Below are positions 865-7,012 of a stretch of 64,000 bases of DNA, piece after piece. The DNA lies in the NCBI GenBank assembly GCA_035528575.1, contig DATKYK010000029.1:14824-78823 (forward strand). Direction: 5' to 3'. The DNA is from Dehalococcoidia bacterium. Lineage in GTDB: Bacteria; Chloroflexota; Dehalococcoidia; E44-bin15. Positions within the stretch are counted from its first letter, which is position 1; every line of letters begins with the position of its first letter. The translations under genes were made by a program, and so were the position numbers. The notes under the pieces were generated by a model, which was not told the DNA's origin, did no database searches, and was given only the letters and a program-made list of their open reading frames with translations.

Positions 865-893
865 TTGACATATATAACCTGGGGGGTTATAAT
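865..893 (+). promoter_or_regulatory. Strong sigma70-type promoter (TTGACA-17-TATAAT) giving a near-leaderless transcript of the toxin operon
   Basis: TTGACA at 865-870, a 17-nt spacer, TATAAT at 888-893. The ATG at 899 is only 5 nt downstream of the -10, which implies a leaderless mRNA. Confidence 0.5.
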
Positions 894-898
894 GTATT

Positions 899-1255
899 AT
901 GCATTTTATTGAGTATTATACTGATAAAAGGGGGCGGCAACCGGTAGTTGAATGGCAAAACCGGCTTGATATAAGGAACGACCATATAATCGATAACAAG
1001 ATTAAAAAGCTTATGGAGAATGGTCTTAAGGTTCTAGATACCAATATGTTTGATGTAATACAAGGCGATGATTCAGATTTTTATGAGTTGAAAGGAGGTC
1101 TAAATAAACAATGTAGGATTGCCATTTATCATGATAAAAGGAGAAATACCTTTATTCTTCTACATGGGTGGTTGAAGAAGAAAGGGCGAGATGAGCAAAA
1201 TATAGAACAGGCTCGCACTATTCTACATAGGTATTTATCAACACAAGGAGAATAA
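899..1255 (+). CDS. Type II toxin, RelE/HigB superfamily (Gp49-like / HI1419 'addiction module killer' family)
   Basis: 118 aa. The C-terminal motif NTFILLHGWLKKKGRDEQNIEQAR is typical of Gp49/HigB-like toxins. It is followed 1 nt later by an XRE antitoxin gene. Confidence 0.65.
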   Translation: MHFIEYYTDKRGRQPVVEWQNRLDIRNDHIIDNKIKKLMENGLKVLDTNMFDVIQGDDSDFYELKGGLNKQCRIAIYHDKRRNTFILLHGWLKKKGRDEQNIEQARTILHRYLSTQGE

Positions 1256-1256
1256 T

Positions 1257-1742
1257 ATGATGGTTAGGACACCAATACAAGAAATAAAGGAGAAGCTGCT
1301 AGATTTTGAGTACAGAAAACGCTTTGGGGCTGCCGACGCAAAGAATGAGTTTGCGATTACTCTAGCGACGGTCCGTAGGGACTTGAATATGACCCAACAG
1401 GAGCTAGCAGATAGATGTGGTGCAACACAACCATATATCGCTAAGTTGGAAGGAGGGGAGGCAAACCCAACGCTGGGTACTATAGGTAATATGCTAGCAG
1501 TAATAGGTTGTCGCCTTGCAATGGATGCAAAGCCACTGCTGCAAGATGTACCAGCACCGCCGTCTACAATTACGGTCAGTCAAAGCAGCACTGTTGCTGA
1601 CACAGGAACACTCCCATTGGATTGGGAATGTATTTACGAGGCAAATGGTTCTGGTGGCTATACTGCGCCGCTGACATCAGGCAGGTATCCAATAACCGCC
1701 GCTAAATCAGATTCCCCTGCTTTAGTGGGAGGATATAGATAA
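1257..1742 (+). CDS. XRE-family HTH antitoxin (HI1420/HigA-like) with a ~65-aa low-complexity C-terminal extension
   Basis: HTH signature LNMTQQELADRCGATQPYIAKLEGGEANPTLGTIGNMLAVIG. The tail is rich in Pro/Ser/Thr. The 1-nt gap after the toxin gene indicates an operon. Confidence 0.65.
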   Translation: MMVRTPIQEIKEKLLDFEYRKRFGAADAKNEFAITLATVRRDLNMTQQELADRCGATQPYIAKLEGGEANPTLGTIGNMLAVIGCRLAMDAKPLLQDVPAPPSTITVSQSSTVADTGTLPLDWECIYEANGSGGYTAPLTSGRYPITAAKSDSPALVGGYR

Positions 1743-2161
1743 TGAACGTATCTAAAGAAATGCAGGAACTATTCACCAATGAGATCGATTTTGTTATTGA
1801 GCGAATGAAAGGGACAAATAGTGCACCCGAGAAAATGTATTTCTTTAGTGGTACATATGCATGCGCCCTAAGGATTATTAATATCGAGTTTGATGCAGAA
1901 CTAGCCTTTATTCATCACGTTCTACAAAGTGCACATCAAATGATAGATGCACGGATAACAAGACCACAGCAGGGGCAAGATAGACCTATTGGAATACCTG
2001 AGAAGTTGTTTGACAGACTTGAAGATGCTTTGAAGGAAATGTTAGCAAGGATAAAGAAGGGTGATGAGACGTATCCCGTGCTTCAGACAATCTTTAATCT
2101 AGCCTATAGCACAACGGGCAATGGCTATTATCTATACTTGAAGGGTTTGTTGCCTGTATAG
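1742..2161 (+). CDS. Hypothetical protein (139 aa) translationally coupled to the antitoxin gene (TAATG overlap)
   Basis: Its start overlaps the stop of the upstream gene (ATAATGA). There is no recognisable domain and the region is AT-rich. Confidence 0.5.
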   Translation: MNVSKEMQELFTNEIDFVIERMKGTNSAPEKMYFFSGTYACALRIINIEFDAELAFIHHVLQSAHQMIDARITRPQQGQDRPIGIPEKLFDRLEDALKEMLARIKKGDETYPVLQTIFNLAYSTTGNGYYLYLKGLLPV

Positions 2162-2379: not shown

Positions 2380-2407
2380 TTGACAAATATCCTATTGACA
2401 ATATAAT
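2380..2407 (+). promoter_or_regulatory. Sigma70-type promoter candidate (TTGACA-16-TATAAT) for hicBA
   Basis: TTGACA at 2380-2385 and TATAAT at 2402-2407, about 70 nt upstream of hicB. Confidence 0.45.
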
Positions 2408-2478
2408 GCAAGGGTGTGGTTTTGCATGGTTTAATTTGGTTGTTCATGGCTTCGTTAGGTAAAACAAAAGGGGGTTGA

Positions 2479-2838
2479 ATGAAAGGGGAGAAGCGACAGG
2501 CTACAGCGGTCAGTCCGAAGGGTTATGTACACCTAACTCTTGAATTCTGCAAAGAAGGCAAGAGATGGACTGCCTGTTGTGAAGAACTTGGCACCGCTAC
2601 TTTTGGTCGCTCACTTCCTGAAGCAGAGGAAAAGCTTAAGGAAGCTGTTCTACTTCATCTGAACGCTATTGAGGCTGTCGGTGAGCGGGAACGATTTTTT
2701 AAAGAAAATGGCATAATTCTTCATCAGACCAAACCCAAATCACTCACAATACATATAACTCCCAACCCAAATGTATTTATTCAAGCCCTTGTCCAGCCTA
2801 TCCCTCAAAGTCCTTCCAAGGAGCGTGTCCCTGCCTGA
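2479..2838 (+). CDS. hicB: HicB-family antitoxin (UPF0150 / RNase H-like fold)
   Basis: The motif ...EGKRWTACCEELGTATFGRSLPEAEEKLKEAV... is typical of the HicB N-domain. A HicA gene follows 43 nt downstream. Confidence 0.6.
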   Translation: MKGEKRQATAVSPKGYVHLTLEFCKEGKRWTACCEELGTATFGRSLPEAEEKLKEAVLLHLNAIEAVGERERFFKENGIILHQTKPKSLTIHITPNPNVFIQALVQPIPQSPSKERVPA

Positions 2839-2881
2839 GTATACCCAGATTCCTGCTATTTAAGGCAAGCAATTAATTAGA

Positions 2882-3091
2882 TTGCTTAAGAAAGACGGCT
2901 GGGAAGCTCTCAGAAAAGCCAAGCATGGTATTGCTTTATCAAAATCCTTCGGTGACCGCAAACGAGTCACAGTCATTCCAGATAGTCGAGCATCACTCCC
3001 TGATGGCACTTTATCGGCAATACTTGGTGTCAAGCAAACAGGACTTGGTAGGGCTGAATTACTCAACTTGATTATTAAACGTGGGCTTTAA
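2882..3091 (+). CDS. hicA: HicA-family toxin (YcfA-like mRNA interferase); probable non-ATG start
   Basis: The in-frame upstream residues give LIRLLKKDGW, a HicA hallmark. Later residues RKAKHG...K fit the family. An upstream TAA at 2861 limits the ORF, so a TTG or ATT start is used. Confidence 0.55.
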   Translation: MLKKDGWEALRKAKHGIALSKSFGDRKRVTVIPDSRASLPDGTLSAILGVKQTGLGRAELLNLIIKRGL

Positions 3092-3117
3092 CCCAAAGGC
3101 GGCTTATAGAACCTCAG

Positions 3118-3182
3118 GCTATCTTCAAAGCTGACAGGATAGGTATATCGCTTGCACCATCTCCAGGCTTTTCCACCTGCCG
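3118..3182. repeat. ~60-bp repeat element, copy B, immediately after the hicA stop
   Basis: See copy A. It starts 27 nt after the hicA stop codon. Confidence 0.7.
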
Positions 3183-3448
3183 AAAAAGCCAACTACCTTC
3201 ATAAAAGCCCCTTTTCAGCCCCATACTGGCAAAGCCGCCCTTTATAACGCTGTAACTACTTCATGAACACCTACGTAGAGCCATAGACGCCGCCCACCTG
3301 GCTACATTTTATCGGTTGTGTTGCTGTCCTGCATGTACCGGACGAGTAGGTTCTCTTGCATTTAGGTGGTTATGTTCCCCTTGATTGTGGTTGACATATT
3401 ATCCTCATTACTATATTATCCTATATCATCAAACAAAAGGAGGGCTTT

Positions 3449-3619
3449 ATGACTAGTGATGTAATAACCCCTGATATTGCCATACTTTGGGCAGCCACTG
3501 AATTAACTAAAGCATGGGTAGGTACTGGGAAAATAGACCCTAGCACAATTGTTAATACCTTTAATACAATCTATACTGGTATATCAAATACTGCAACGTT
3601 TACTCCTTTTTCTCAGTAA
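3449..3619 (+). CDS. Possible small ORF (56 aa) with a strong RBS (aaaggaggg)
   Basis: A Shine-Dalgarno sequence lies 4 nt before the ATG, and TTGACA-17-TATTAT is about 55 nt upstream. It falls below the ORF-track length cutoff. Confidence 0.3.
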   Translation: MTSDVITPDIAILWAATELTKAWVGTGKIDPSTIVNTFNTIYTGISNTATFTPFSQ

Positions 3620-3799: not shown

Positions 3800-4624
3800 T
3801 TAATCTTTACTTAGATACTCCACTAATCCTATCCATGTATTAAATGGCAACTTTAACCCAGCATATACCGCTGGTGTTTTACCCTTCAATGTCATATGTG
3901 GTCTTAGGAAGTTATAGTGAATGATAAAACCTTCAGAGATAGCTATGGCTGAATCTAATGTCTTTAATCCCCTAAAAACCTTCGTGCGCTCTTTGACGGT
4001 TCCCTGGAATCTCTCGATTATGTTAGTATTTACTTCTGCCGTAAGTCCCTTAGCCCTTATATGCTCACTATCAGCACCAAATACTCTCTCAATAGCATCT
4101 GGATACGCTGGCATACCATCCGAGACTATTTGCTTCGGTAGACCTATAACACGGTTGTACGCTTCAGACAATACCGCTACGGCAGACCGCATATCACGGC
4201 TTTTAGTTATATGTGTAGCTAGTAAAAAGCGACTTCTCGAATCTATAACGTCCCATAGCCAGAGTTTTCCCCCTGCTACAGAAATCATCGTCTCGTCGAT
4301 GACCCACTGCCACGATGTTTTTACCTCTAGTTTATTCAGGATACGCTCAGACTTCTTAGAATACTTAATAATCCAACGCCACACTGTAGCAGGGTCAACA
4401 ATGATTCCCTCAGTAGCGACAAGGTGTCTACTAATATCTGCCAGCGATAACCCATCATAGAATAAGCCTAGCGATTCGCCGATTGTCTCAGTAGTGAACC
4501 GCATTCCTTCGGGTGCTAGAGTACCAGCGAATTTACGCCCGCAAGCTTTGCATTTGTAATACTGAGTACCTGCCTTAAAGCCGTATTTCATGGTGCTGGG
4601 TGATTGGCAGAATTTACATTTCAT
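3800..4624 (-). mobile_element. IS6-family (IS26/IS240-like) DDE transposase with an N-terminal zinc ribbon
   Basis: The protein aligns with IS26 Tnp across the catalytic core: TVWRWI.KY, W.IDET.I.V.G.W.W.VIDS, SDGMPAY. The N-terminus has CxxC...CxxC. Terminal inverted repeats could not be recognised. Confidence 0.7.
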
Positions 4625-5274
4625 TTAATATTCATTCTCCAATATTTACCAAATAACCTTACCTCACGAATCTTAATATCACTTACAGACCAATGATAAT
4701 TTGGGCGTGGTTCAATTATCTCAACAACAATTAAATAAACAGGTTCTGGAGTATCAATTGTAAAAGATATATTATGTCTTAACCCAGAGCATTCCTGCTC
4801 CCATTCCTTTAAAATACCTGATGCCCCATTAAGTATTACCCTCCACTTCTTTGGATAATCTGGTGAATCCTTACCATGCATAAAAACAACTTTATCTATT
4901 ACACGAGCTTTGCCATAATCCCAATACCTTATCTTTTTAAATACCTTTGAGGTAGCCTTTAAAATGTAATATATAATTTTGTTAGGACTTTTACGTATAT
5001 CTAAAACGAAAGTATCACCTGTTTCTTGTTGTCTATGGGTTCTCCATTTAGTAGCTTCTTTGCCTTCAAGATAATCTGTACTATTAAGTAAATCAGCCCT
5101 CCAATGTGTCCTATCAGGCCATAATAACCTAGAAATAAATATCCACAAACCTATAACAACTGCAAAAGAGCTAGAAACAATAATAGTTATCATTCTAGGC
5201 GTCCCCGCTAACCCTTCGATTAGTGCGCTTATAACAACACCAGCAACACACATCTTGAGTATTGTCATTAACAT
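4621..5274 (-). CDS. Hypothetical membrane-anchored protein (2 N-terminal TM helices); its stop overlaps the transposase start
   Basis: It overlaps the tnp ATG by 4 nt (ATGA). The region is AT-rich and the protein has no recognisable domain. Confidence 0.45.
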   Translation of the reverse strand: MLMTILKMCVAGVVISALIEGLAGTPRMITIIVSSSFAVVIGLWIFISRLLWPDRTHWRADLLNSTDYLEGKEATKWRTHRQQETGDTFVLDIRKSPNKIIYYILKATSKVFKKIRYWDYGKARVIDKVVFMHGKDSPDYPKKWRVILNGASGILKEWEQECSGLRHNISFTIDTPEPVYLIVVEIIEPRPNYHWSVSDIKIREVRLFGKYWRMNIK

Positions 5275-5412: not shown

Positions 5413-5452
5413 GCTTGACTTTTCCTCCTGATAGCTGTTAGATTTGTCCGTG
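5413..5452. repeat. Right copy of ~40-bp imperfect direct repeat flanking the island; contains a putative -35/-10 for the downstream surface protein gene
   Basis: It matches 292-331. It also carries TTGACT-17-TTAGAT upstream of the surface-protein start. Confidence 0.8.
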
Positions 5453-5476
5453 TCTCGGTTCAAGCTCCTACAAAAG

Positions 5477-7012
5477 ATGGCTCTACGATTCGCAACATCT
5501 TTTATTCCTCTAACAATTATAGCATTGCTGACGGTAAGCACCCTTTCCGCTGGAGCCGTGGATAATCTTTTGCAGAACCCAGGCTTCGAGTATGGACCTT
5601 CGGGCTGGTTAAGCTATGGTGGTGGCGCTCTCTCCGTAGTTGGGTCACCAGTCCACAGCGGAGATTTTGCCGCTGCCTTCGAAAGCGACACCGCAACAAC
5701 AAAGTGGATTTATCAGGTCGTATCTGTATTGGGGGGAGAAAGCTATACCTTTTCTGGCTACGCCATAAAAAATGATCCTAATATTGAGACAATTTTCCTA
5801 CGGATCTCCTGGTACCAGAGCCTAGATGGCTTCGGAACCGAGATGGCTCACCACGACTCCCTCACTGTTCTGATAGATGACGAGCCCCAATACCGTCTTT
5901 TAACTACTGATGAGCTTACCGCTCCAATAGATGCACATTCGGCACGAGTTAAAGCGATACTGGAGCCGGTCTCCGACGTGGCAGCAATTGCCTATTTTGA
6001 CGATCTACGCTTCGAAGGGCCTCCGCCAGCTACTCCTACTCCCACGCCGACACCGACTCCTACTCCAACACCAACACCAACACCAACACCAACACCAACT
6101 CCTACACCCACACCCACTTCTACTCCTACTCCTACCCCAACTCCTACACCTATCCCTTCGCCAACGCCTACGCCCACACCAACCCCTACTCCCACGCCTA
6201 CTCCTACGCCTAATCCCACTCCTACTCCTACTCCTACTCCAACACCAACCCACAACGGCACGATCGCCGATATTGGCGATGTGCTGATTAATGAGATCCA
6301 ATACGATTCTCTGCAACCGGGTGTTGATGCTTCCTTCGAGTGGGTGGAGCTCTTTAACTGCACACAAGAGCCTGTTGAGCTTGAAGGATGGAGAATCAGC
6401 GATAACTATGGCAGCGACCCGGTTCCCTCACTACACCTGCCCCCTCAGGAATTCGCGGTAATCGCCGCCTCTCAGGACTTTTACACCAGCTTCCCTGACT
6501 TCACGGGCACCATAGCCTTCATAGACGATAGCCGTGTTGGCAACGGATTGAGCAATGACGGGGACTGCCTCATCCTTGAGGACAGTGCGGAAACTGTTAT
6601 TGATGCTATGTCCTACGGCGATGATAACAGTATATTGCTGCCGCCATGCCTGGATGTGGCCGAAGGCCACTCCCTGGAGCGCCAACCCGCCGGCTTTGAT
6701 ACCGACCAGGCCAGCGACTTTACGGATAATTCAGAGCCCACCCCAGGCTACGGCCTTTCTCCCTCCACATCCTCACCCACACCCACCATGACACCAACGC
6801 CAACAGCGGGTCCCACCGCTACGCCCACTACTACACCGACAGCGACACCTACAACCTCACCTCCCAGCAGTCCCACCCCTGAGGGCACAACGCCGCCGCC
6901 TCAAGAATCCCCGGCTCTCTCTGGAATGGCGTTGCGCGCTATTCTCATTACAGCAGCATTAGCCTTCTTTGCCGTTGTTTTCTGGTTTGGAATGAGAAAG
7001 AGGAGAAAATAA
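5477..7012 (+). CDS. Cell-surface protein: signal peptide, CBM4/9-like domain, PT-repeat linker, Lamin-tail domain (LTD), second S/T/P-rich linker, C-terminal TM anchor with basic tail
   Basis: [11 protein letters not shown] is a CBM4_9 start. (PT)n spans about 60 residues. INEIQYD...EWVELFN...EGWRISD is an LTD signature. The C-terminus is a hydrophobic helix followed by RKRRK. The start is probably MALRF at 5477 rather than the TTG at 5444. Confidence 0.7.
6023..6250. repeat. Tandem hexanucleotide-like repeat (CCNACN)n encoding the PT linker
   Basis: Runs of ccaacaccaacaccaacacc and actcctactcctac appear directly in the DNA. Confidence 0.85.

Follow-up and report, generated by a model that had tools for sequence, protein, structure and literature searches.

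A 64,000-nucleotide (nt) stretch of the genome of a Dehalococcoidia bacterium (assembly GCA_035528575.1, contig DATKYK010000029.1, positions 14,824 to 78,823; this whole stretch is hereafter called the window, and positions are given in its numbering) carries a three-gene operon composed of a HigB/Gp49-type toxin gene (g1), a HigA/XRE-type antitoxin gene (g2) and a third gene (g3) whose product belongs to a new, unannotated protein family. We consider it practically beyond doubt that this operon is real and conserved, and the g3 family is a genuine, strongly conserved and previously undescribed one. Our reading of the module, to which we give a probability of about 0.5, is that it is a chromosomal, mobile-looking toxin-antitoxin (TA) system with a third component other than SecB, and that g3 would act through the disordered C-terminal tail of the antitoxin, in the manner of the toxin-antitoxin-chaperone (TAC) systems but as a new helical partner. 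The role of g3 is argued here by analogy.

A conserved three-gene operon

The first gene, g1 (899-1255), encodes a 118-amino-acid (aa) toxin of the RelE/ParE superfamily, g2 (1257-1742) a 161-aa antitoxin with N-terminal helices and a helix-turn-helix (HTH) domain (approximately residues 1-94) followed by a disordered tail, and g3 (1742-2161) an all-alpha protein of 139 aa. All three are read from the forward strand. Since an in-frame TAA at 890-892 blocks any longer open reading frame (ORF), the start of g1 is set at 899. A single nucleotide separates g1 from g2, and the Shine-Dalgarno sequence of g2 (AAGGAG, 1245-1250, 6 nt upstream of the ATG at 1257) is embedded in the 3' end of g1. The Shine-Dalgarno sequence of g3 (GGGAGGA, 1727-1733) lies within the last codons of g2, and the g2 stop codon TAA (1740-1742) and the g3 ATG (1742-1744) have one A in common, which gives ATAATGA. 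A preliminary description of this locus had put forward a TA-like operon with a third gene of no known kind and this same stop/start overlap; both hold, and the ORFs are exactly as it gave them.

Homologous loci were gathered from protein-context look-ups, GTDB genomes, JGI metagenomes and IMG/VR, which yielded 110 loci with complete g3 homologues (L-numbers below are locus labels). An ORF on the same strand ends no more than 200 nt upstream of g3 in 101 of the 110, the other nine being cut by a contig end, and an HTH_3 domain is found in 76 of the 77 non-redundant proteins encoded directly upstream of g3. The order of toxin, tailed antitoxin and g3 is present in all loci with enough upstream DNA. 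The gene preceding the antitoxin is a Gp49-type toxin throughout, apparent absences being due to non-ATG start codons or to a frameshift in L023, with L025 standing apart. No orphan g3 was seen among approximately 100 loci. The antitoxin and g3 reading frames overlap in 37 of 78 non-redundant loci (by 4 nt in 22 and by 1 nt in 15), most of the others having gaps of 0-57 nt, and a GGAGG-like Shine-Dalgarno sequence precedes the g3 ATG in 75 of these 78. The conserved three-gene synteny that the preliminary description had set as a check is thus found in about 100 loci. It had also named two observations that would speak against its proposal, a third gene lacking conservation or synteny and first two genes that always occur only as a pair, and neither is what these loci display. 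Its suggestion that translation of g3 is coupled to that of the antitoxin agrees with the 37 overlapping loci, but the overlap is not universal and the coupling is deduced from geometry.

The hosts of g3 loci include Dehalococcoidia, Desulfobacterales, Smithella and Thermodesulfobacteriota, and two of the contigs come from IMG/VR. In scans of viral contigs, no usable pattern could be derived from the toxin alignment, and the antitoxin alignment produced only three weak partial matches. Neighborhoods vary from locus to locus and comprise, for example, a GTPase together with a lactamase-fold gene, phage portal and capsid genes, or aminoacyl-tRNA synthetases. In L003 (437-3806, and also in L004-L008) the locus adjoins SPP1_portal and major capsid genes and a MazE-like pair, a setting that suggests a prophage border or a defense islet.

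The only backbone other than HigA among 77 loci is that of L025 (2859-4423), where g3 follows a 233-aa antitoxin that combines a Zn-ribbon with an HTH domain and ends in Ala-Ala. This antitoxin weakly resembles MqsA (TIGR03830, E=0.0028 over the whole model), and the 136-aa protein encoded upstream of it matches no known toxin family and has no detectable similarity to Gp49; given the weak match and an upstream gene without a toxin family, an assignment to MqsA was set aside. In L023 (3123-3523) the toxin is split into two frames, seen as two tblastn segments, with the antitoxin and g3 intact, which may reflect either decay or an assembly error in a metagenome-assembled genome.

Identity of the toxin and the antitoxin

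Taken by itself, g1 scores below the threshold of the Pfam Gp49 model (18.4 bits, cut-off 23.9, E=0.0023). Among orthologous toxins, however, PF05973 (Gp49) is matched by 46 of 62 (best E=1.5e-11), and a profile of these orthologues identifies the HigB toxin of PDB entry 6af3 (E=1.7e-12). The g2 protein exceeds the HTH_3 cut-off (37.8 bits versus 23), its fold neighbors in Foldseek are XRE, HipB and C-protein structures, and the antitoxin profile recovers the HigA of 6af3 (E=3.4e-10). Both profiles therefore point to one solved HigBA complex, and by these sequence comparisons g1-g2 is a HigB/Gp49-HigA/XRE pair in the broad sense. The complex in question, Streptococcus pneumoniae HigBA (6af3/6af4), is the best solved relative of both proteins and has the same toxin-first order, but differs from the window locus in that its HigA, at 97 aa, has no C-terminal tail and there is no third gene.

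The assignment to the HI1419/HI1420 addiction module made in the preliminary description proved weak. This module resembles the window locus in having a RelE/ParE-superfamily killer upstream of an HTH antidote, and TIGR02683 is the sole NCBIfam model reached by any orthologous toxin. However, the window g1 and g2 match neither TIGR02683 nor TIGR02684 (E<=1), TIGR02683 is matched by only 11 of the 62 orthologous toxins, with a best E of 1.3e-5, TIGR02684 is matched by only 2 of the 77 orthologous antitoxins, and the HI1419/HI1420 family consists of two genes instead of three. Because these models miss the window proteins and reach a minority of their orthologues, we retain the broader HigB/Gp49-HigA/XRE label.

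The g3 family

A word-indexed search found 203 g3 homologues at 90% clustering, and an exhaustive profile search returned 447 cluster representatives (clustering at 50% identity), of which 366 had E<=1e-10. Nearly all family members are 135-150 aa long. The g3 protein has no match in Pfam, NCBIfam, PADLOC, PHROGs or the sequences of the PDB, and 51 family members gave no meaningful Pfam match and none to PF02556 (SecB). AlphaFold2 models g3 as six helices without any strand (pLDDT 95, pTM 0.89). Foldseek detected no fold relative in the PDB (best E=0.39) and none in BFVD, the nearest folds being generic helical bundles such as cytochrome b562 and CheA P1, with template-modeling (TM) scores of about 0.5. 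The absence of a recognizable family, first noted from the sequence of the window, thus extends across sequence and fold databases. Neither the g3 family nor any non-SecB third component of HigBA was described in the literature searched.

Conservation within the family is concentrated in a near-invariant C-terminal motif, NLAYSTTGNGYYLYLKG (residues 119-135; 2096-2146), in which A121, S123, T125, G126, N127, G128, Y129, Y130, L131 and G135 are invariant in an alignment of 51 sequences. The motif is kept in the homologues from Desulfobacterales and Smithella, at an overall identity of 31-37%. Further invariant polar residues are located in helices 1-3 of the same alignment. A histidine phosphotransfer role (CheA P1 gave the best TM score, about 0.5) was discarded as there is no conserved His in the 51 sequences, and a HEPN-like role was set aside since the g3 sequence of the window shows no evident Rx4-6H motif.

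The antitoxin tail

Residues 95-161 of g2 (67 residues; 1539-1739) form a tail that is rich in Pro, Ser, Thr, Gly and Ala, poor in Lys and predicted to be disordered. Pro, Ser and Thr make up 34% of it (12% in the N-domain) and together with Gly and Ala 55%, and charged residues are few. In the AlphaFold2 model of g2, the N-terminal helices and the HTH domain are formed, and residues 102-161 have a pLDDT below 50 and no secondary structure; composition and model thus bear out the disordered tail of roughly 65 residues, rich in Pro, Ser and Thr, that had been described earlier.

The tails of 76 non-redundant g3-linked antitoxins range from 20 to 95 aa around a median of 67 aa. They are hypervariable and show the same richness in Pro, Ser, Thr, Gly and Ala. 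Lys accounts for 2.3% of their residues, compared to 7.1% in the N-domains. Trp reaches 1.72%, which is approximately fourfold over the N-domains (0.40%) and compares with 0.87% in the long ORFs of the window. Trp occurs in 57 of the 76 tails and an aromatic residue of any kind in 73.

Among close relatives of the window antitoxin, the sole conserved tail segment has the pattern D-T-G-x-x-P-x-D-W. It corresponds to the short linear motif DTGTLPLDWECI around Trp123 (residues 115-126; 1599-1634), as seen in an alignment of these relatives, and by comparison with the aromatic ChAD motifs of TAC antitoxins we regard Trp123 and its surroundings as a candidate docking site for g3. Nine antitoxins from non-overlapping loci end in Ala-Ala. 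The window antitoxin ends in GGYR, and the g3 Shine-Dalgarno sequence and the gene overlap place a constraint on its last codons. A conserved Gly-Gly near the antitoxin C-terminus was rejected as a protein motif, since it is the GGAGG of the Shine-Dalgarno sequence read as codons and is absent where the genes do not overlap.

Tail length, third gene and joint exchange

A search with the DNA-binding part of g2 recovered homologues in three length classes, and the genomic context was examined for a subset of them. Antitoxins of 111-115 aa, with about 20 residues after the HTH domain, have no coupled third gene in four distinct loci (L112/113, L114/115, L121/122 and L126), what follows them being either an unrelated gene at a distance of 170 nt or more, or an ORF of doubtful reality. 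Antitoxins of 135-143 aa are followed by a gene for a DUF6941 protein (PF22091, 133-146 aa) in L116-L119 and in one ENA contig. In the third class, seen in about 100 loci and including the window g2 (161 aa), antitoxins of mostly about 150-180 aa (range 127-233) are followed by g3.

The DUF6941 loci (L116, 2947-3387; L118, 2452-2892; also L117 and L119), which come from Dehalococcoidia metagenomes, can be considered sister loci of the window module. They share with it the Gp49 and XRE pair, an antitoxin DNA-binding domain 55-60% identical to that of g2, the three-gene layout and a C-terminal antitoxin extension. They differ in the shorter tails and in the third protein, which is unrelated to g3, uncharacterized and apparently beta-rich as judged from its sequence. 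No mention of DUF6941 was found in the literature searched, and it may represent a parallel family of third components.

The comparison of L003 and L076 indicates that tail and g3 can travel together. Their g3 proteins are 71% identical (E=1e-81) and their tails 43% identical over 58 aa, including LFQTE(N/D)YNPFK (E=2e-13), whereas BLASTP does not align their toxins (E=2.7) and the DNA-binding N-domains of their antitoxins are only about 20% identical. The toxin (58-72%) and DNA-binding domain (62-85%) of L003 group instead with those of L078, L086, L099 and L106, loci in which the g3 proteins share only 41-44% identity with that of L003 and the tails are unrelated. Because L003 and L076 share only the tail and g3, these two must have moved as a unit, the break falling between HTH domain and tail. 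The alignments thereby show, in one clear case, that tail and g3 were jointly exchanged between unrelated toxin/antitoxin backbones in at least one lineage. This swap parallels, in nature, the experiments in which Bordes et al. grafted ChAD and SecB (PMC5105189). A global correlation was also tried and abandoned: tail similarity follows g3 identity and N-domain identity to the same degree (Spearman 0.23 each), and only L003 is a clean case.

Promoter, operator and translation

A sigma-70-type promoter identical to the consensus at 12 of 12 positions lies directly in front of g1, with the -35 element TTGACA at 865-870, a 17-nt spacer and the -10 element TATAAT at 888-893. Spacer and -10 element contain the inverted repeat TATAACC-N5-GGTTATA (873-891), of which TATAAC-N7-GTTATA is the family-wide core. 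The promoter block (consensus TTGACAAATATAACctgtgggGTTATaaT) recurs in 45 non-redundant homologous loci with unconserved flanks. Written as TTGACA-AATATAAC-N7-GGTTATAAT, it is nearly invariant among them, both palindrome arms are among the most conserved columns, and the 25 nt upstream are not conserved. This pattern of conservation supports the inference that the block truly functions as a promoter and that a palindromic operator overlaps it. Given that higBA operons are autoregulated through promoter palindromes (PMC11980606), the palindrome at 873-891 is likely, by analogy, the operator for the HTH antitoxin dimer. A direct repeat, TGACATATA, is present in two copies (853-861 and 866-874), the second of which overlaps the -35 element, and an extra TATAAT at 858-863 falls inside it. 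This feature might act as an additional half-site of the operator or as a weak promoter further upstream; it is not conserved in the compared locus L001. Neither the extra TATAAT nor the inverted repeat figures in the preliminary description.

The -10 element ends 5 nt before the toxin ATG at 899. As it abuts this start codon and an earlier start is impossible, the 5' untranslated region would not exceed 5 nt if the promoter at 865-893 is used. Across homologous loci the start codon (ATG or GTG, rarely TTG) follows the -10 element after a gap of 5 nt in 22 cases and of 3-4 nt in another 11, which supports the inference from sequence that in the clade of the window the mRNA begins at or beside the start codon. 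Four loci, L055, L073, L097 and L108, have no gap at all (0 nt), the start codon abutting the conserved -10 element; they have a second TATAAT promoter about 20-25 nt upstream of TTGACA and a GAGG 7-9 nt before the start, and in them the conserved block is probably an operator with a Shine-Dalgarno region within a leader. Because of this upstream promoter and 0-nt gap, the family must also make use of leadered expression. The leaderless toxin mRNA put forward in the preliminary description thus stands in so far as the spacing of 5 nt is correct and the geometry conserved, but it is not universal in the family and is a geometric argument; for the window locus we lean towards it. Leaderless expression would itself be nothing new, as it is well documented for TA operons of Mycobacterium tuberculosis, where it applies to 32 of the 37 TA pairs whose primary start site has been mapped (PMC3898074). 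A terminator scan revealed no terminator-like site 3' of g3, and a hairpin inside g2 (1612-1627) was treated as a chance occurrence, with one site found against 2.8 expected.

Comparison with TAC systems and proposed mechanism

To our knowledge, TAC systems provide the only well-understood case of TA control by a third protein that holds the disordered tail of the antitoxin, and this protein has so far always been SecB-like. The defining features of TAC systems are a gene order in which the toxin is followed by the antitoxin and then by the chaperone; an antitoxin whose C-terminal extension (ChAD) is variable, prone to aggregation, equipped with aromatic residues for recognition and in many cases with a ClpX degron; a chaperone that is SecB-like; and modularity across HigA, MqsA and HicB antitoxins (PMC5105189; bioRxiv 10.1101/2024.02.24.581848; PMC11980606). 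Examples are HigB1-HigA1-SecB(TA) (Rv1955-1957) of M. tuberculosis and HigBAC and CmdTAC of Escherichia coli, the third protein of an E. coli TAC doubling as a phage sensor (bioRxiv 10.1101/2024.02.24.581848). The Pfam family Gp49 contains the M. tuberculosis TAC toxin HigB1 (PMC11980606).

The window module and its relatives resemble these systems in the order of toxin, antitoxin and third gene, in a toxin of the same Gp49 family as HigB1, and in an XRE antitoxin whose variable disordered C-terminal extension bears aromatic residues in most loci and whose two-gene homologues are short-tailed. Also in common are a third component that pairs with more than one antitoxin architecture, the transferability of extension and third gene, and, in several g3-family loci, Ala-Ala antitoxin ends resembling ClpX degrons. 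The differences concern the third protein, a predicted six-helix all-alpha protein instead of the alpha/beta SecB fold, without PF02556 or any chaperone family and with mostly polar residues as its most conserved ones, and the window antitoxin, which has neither an Ala-Ala nor a Val-Ala degron. As far as genes and sequences tell, the module shares every TAC feature tested except for the SecB-like third protein and the Ala-Ala end of the window antitoxin. We do not file it as a TAC member, because g3 is not SecB-like and the window antitoxin lacks Ala-Ala. The SecB-dependent TAC precedent, which the preliminary description overlooked, nevertheless supplies by analogy the most likely mechanism.

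According to this mechanism, a g2 dimer would repress its own promoter via the TATAAC-N7-GTTATA palindrome that overlaps the -10 element. Transcription would begin at or next to the toxin ATG, leading to inefficient translation of the toxin from a leaderless 5' end, and the antitoxin and g3 would be translated from strong internal Shine-Dalgarno sites, with g3 coupled to the antitoxin via the TAATG overlap. A leaderless toxin cistron devoid of a Shine-Dalgarno sequence followed by two cistrons driven by such sequences would favor an excess of antitoxin and g3 over toxin. The disordered, aromatic-bearing tail would leave the antitoxin unstable or inactive unless g3 binds to it, probably around Trp123, and g3 would thereby set the level of active antitoxin. 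Titration or inactivation of g3, e.g., by a phage protein or by stress, would free the toxin, with cleavage of ribosome-bound mRNA and growth arrest as consequences.

In the genetic position of SecB, this module has the widespread and unannotated g3, and a sister lineage uses yet another family of no known function, DUF6941. If g3 does bind the tail, "chaperone addiction" would be a convergent modular design principle and not a SecB curiosity, about 450 clusters of hypothetical proteins from anaerobes that are difficult to culture would gain a function, and new orthogonal tail/partner pairs could be exploited for the synthetic control of protein stability. More tentatively, and with the doubts prevailing, g3 and DUF6941 might be unrecognized classes of dedicated antitoxin-tail partners, the combination of a disordered tail and its cognate small protein being a general plug-in that can make any TA pair dependent on, and triggerable through, a third protein. 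Such a plug-in would reach far past SecB, would have been invented independently at least three times and might serve anaerobic Chloroflexota and Desulfobacterota as a phage- or stress-sensing switch.

Alternative roles of g3

Several observations weigh against a TAC-like role of g3. The strongest counter-signal is the conservation of g3 itself, as its invariant polar residues and the STTGNGYY sequence hint at a site for a constant ligand or an enzyme site and not at a groove for hypervariable tails. Moreover, g3 is unlike SecB in its predicted structure and without resemblance to any known chaperone. Aromatic residues are missing altogether from the tails of L001, L002 and L015, and the window antitoxin, ending in GGYR, is devoid of an Ala-Ala degron. 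The link between a short tail and the lack of a third gene is drawn from the four distinct loci listed above. In a second g3 swap, the L086 group and L091/L102 have g3 proteins that share 73-82% identity but sit beside tails without detectable similarity. Finally, several family members combine a 0-nt gap between the -10 element and the start codon with an upstream promoter, at variance with the leaderless toxin cistron of the proposed mechanism.

Part of this evidence would fit a g3 that is an independent effector or sensor, possibly a small enzyme or ligand-binding protein, with HigBA serving only as a regulatory or addiction cassette and the tail as a degradation tag or spacer. The contrast between invariant polar residues (E14, K31, S36, R44, N47, E53, S123, T125, N127, Y129 and Y130) and hypervariable tails would then be expected, as would highly similar g3 proteins next to dissimilar tails and tails free of aromatic residues. 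We nonetheless hold this to be unlikely: g3 was never seen without a tailed antitoxin, tail and g3 were transferred together in L003/L076, the short-tailed homologues have no third gene, and g3 matches no enzyme family or fold.

Alternatively, g3 might bind the toxin or the folded TA complex, as a second antitoxin or toxin modulator, and not the tail. Tripartite TA systems with extra subunits that contact the toxin exist, and the three genes are tightly coupled, with g3 overlapping the antitoxin stop codon. Such binding is, however, hard to reconcile with g3 proteins that are 71% identical and adjoin toxins that BLASTP cannot align, or with L025, where the protein in the toxin position has no detectable Gp49 similarity, and it leaves the correlation of the third gene with tail length unexplained. 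We judge it rather improbable.

Still less probable is a role of g3 as a transcriptional co-regulator. Some three-gene TA systems do have a regulator as their third component, for example omega-epsilon-zeta and paaR2-paaA2-parE2, and the highly conserved operator/promoter block could accommodate additional factors. Yet g3 displays no HTH, ribbon-helix-helix or other DNA-binding signature or fold match, the DNA-binding domain is already on the antitoxin, g3 is the last gene of the operon and not the first, and one g3 subclade serves loci with different antitoxin DNA-binding domains. That g3 is an unrelated passenger downstream of the TA pair, as its location in an islet of small, independently promoted cassettes (see below) might suggest, is effectively refuted by its strict linkage over about 100 loci in several phyla and different neighborhoods, by the stop/start overlaps in 37 of 78 loci and by the failure to see an orphan g3.

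Genomic surroundings in the window

The three-gene locus is held in an islet of approximately 5.1 kb that is flanked by a 41-nt direct repeat (292-332 and 5413-5453, 88% identical) and looks like an insertion with duplicated ends. The islet sits among ordinary chromosomal genes (PPDK, a NuoF-like gene and DnaG) and contains four small cassettes, each with a near-perfect promoter. No integrase was seen in it. Its reverse strand encodes an IS240/IS6-family transposase (3800-4624) and an overlapping 217-aa ORF of no known family (4621-5274).

A second TA-like cassette (2380-3091) begins with a perfect 12/12 promoter (2380-2407) and encodes a 119-aa protein (2479-2838) that has a weak DUF7387 match and may be HicB-like by position, followed by a 69-aa HicA-like protein (2882-3091) with a match to PF07927 below the cut-off (E=2.5e-4). 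A repeat of about 97 nt, 72-91% identical, occurs just 3' of g3 (2264-2359) and just 3' of the HicA-like gene (3088-3184). It was discarded as an integron attC site or terminator, as its folding z-score against shuffled sequences is close to 0, it has no Rfam match, it forms no attC-like hairpin and no site resembling a terminator lies behind g3.

Two single-gene mini-cassettes (432-773, 86 aa; 3391-3619, 56 aa), whose products received no family assignment, each have an 11/12 promoter and a strong Shine-Dalgarno sequence. Directly to the right of the islet, a gene at 5444-7012 encodes a protein of 522 aa that has long Pro-Thr repeats and ends in a hydrophobic anchor, the gene containing tandem units of 12/18 nt at 6003-6278.

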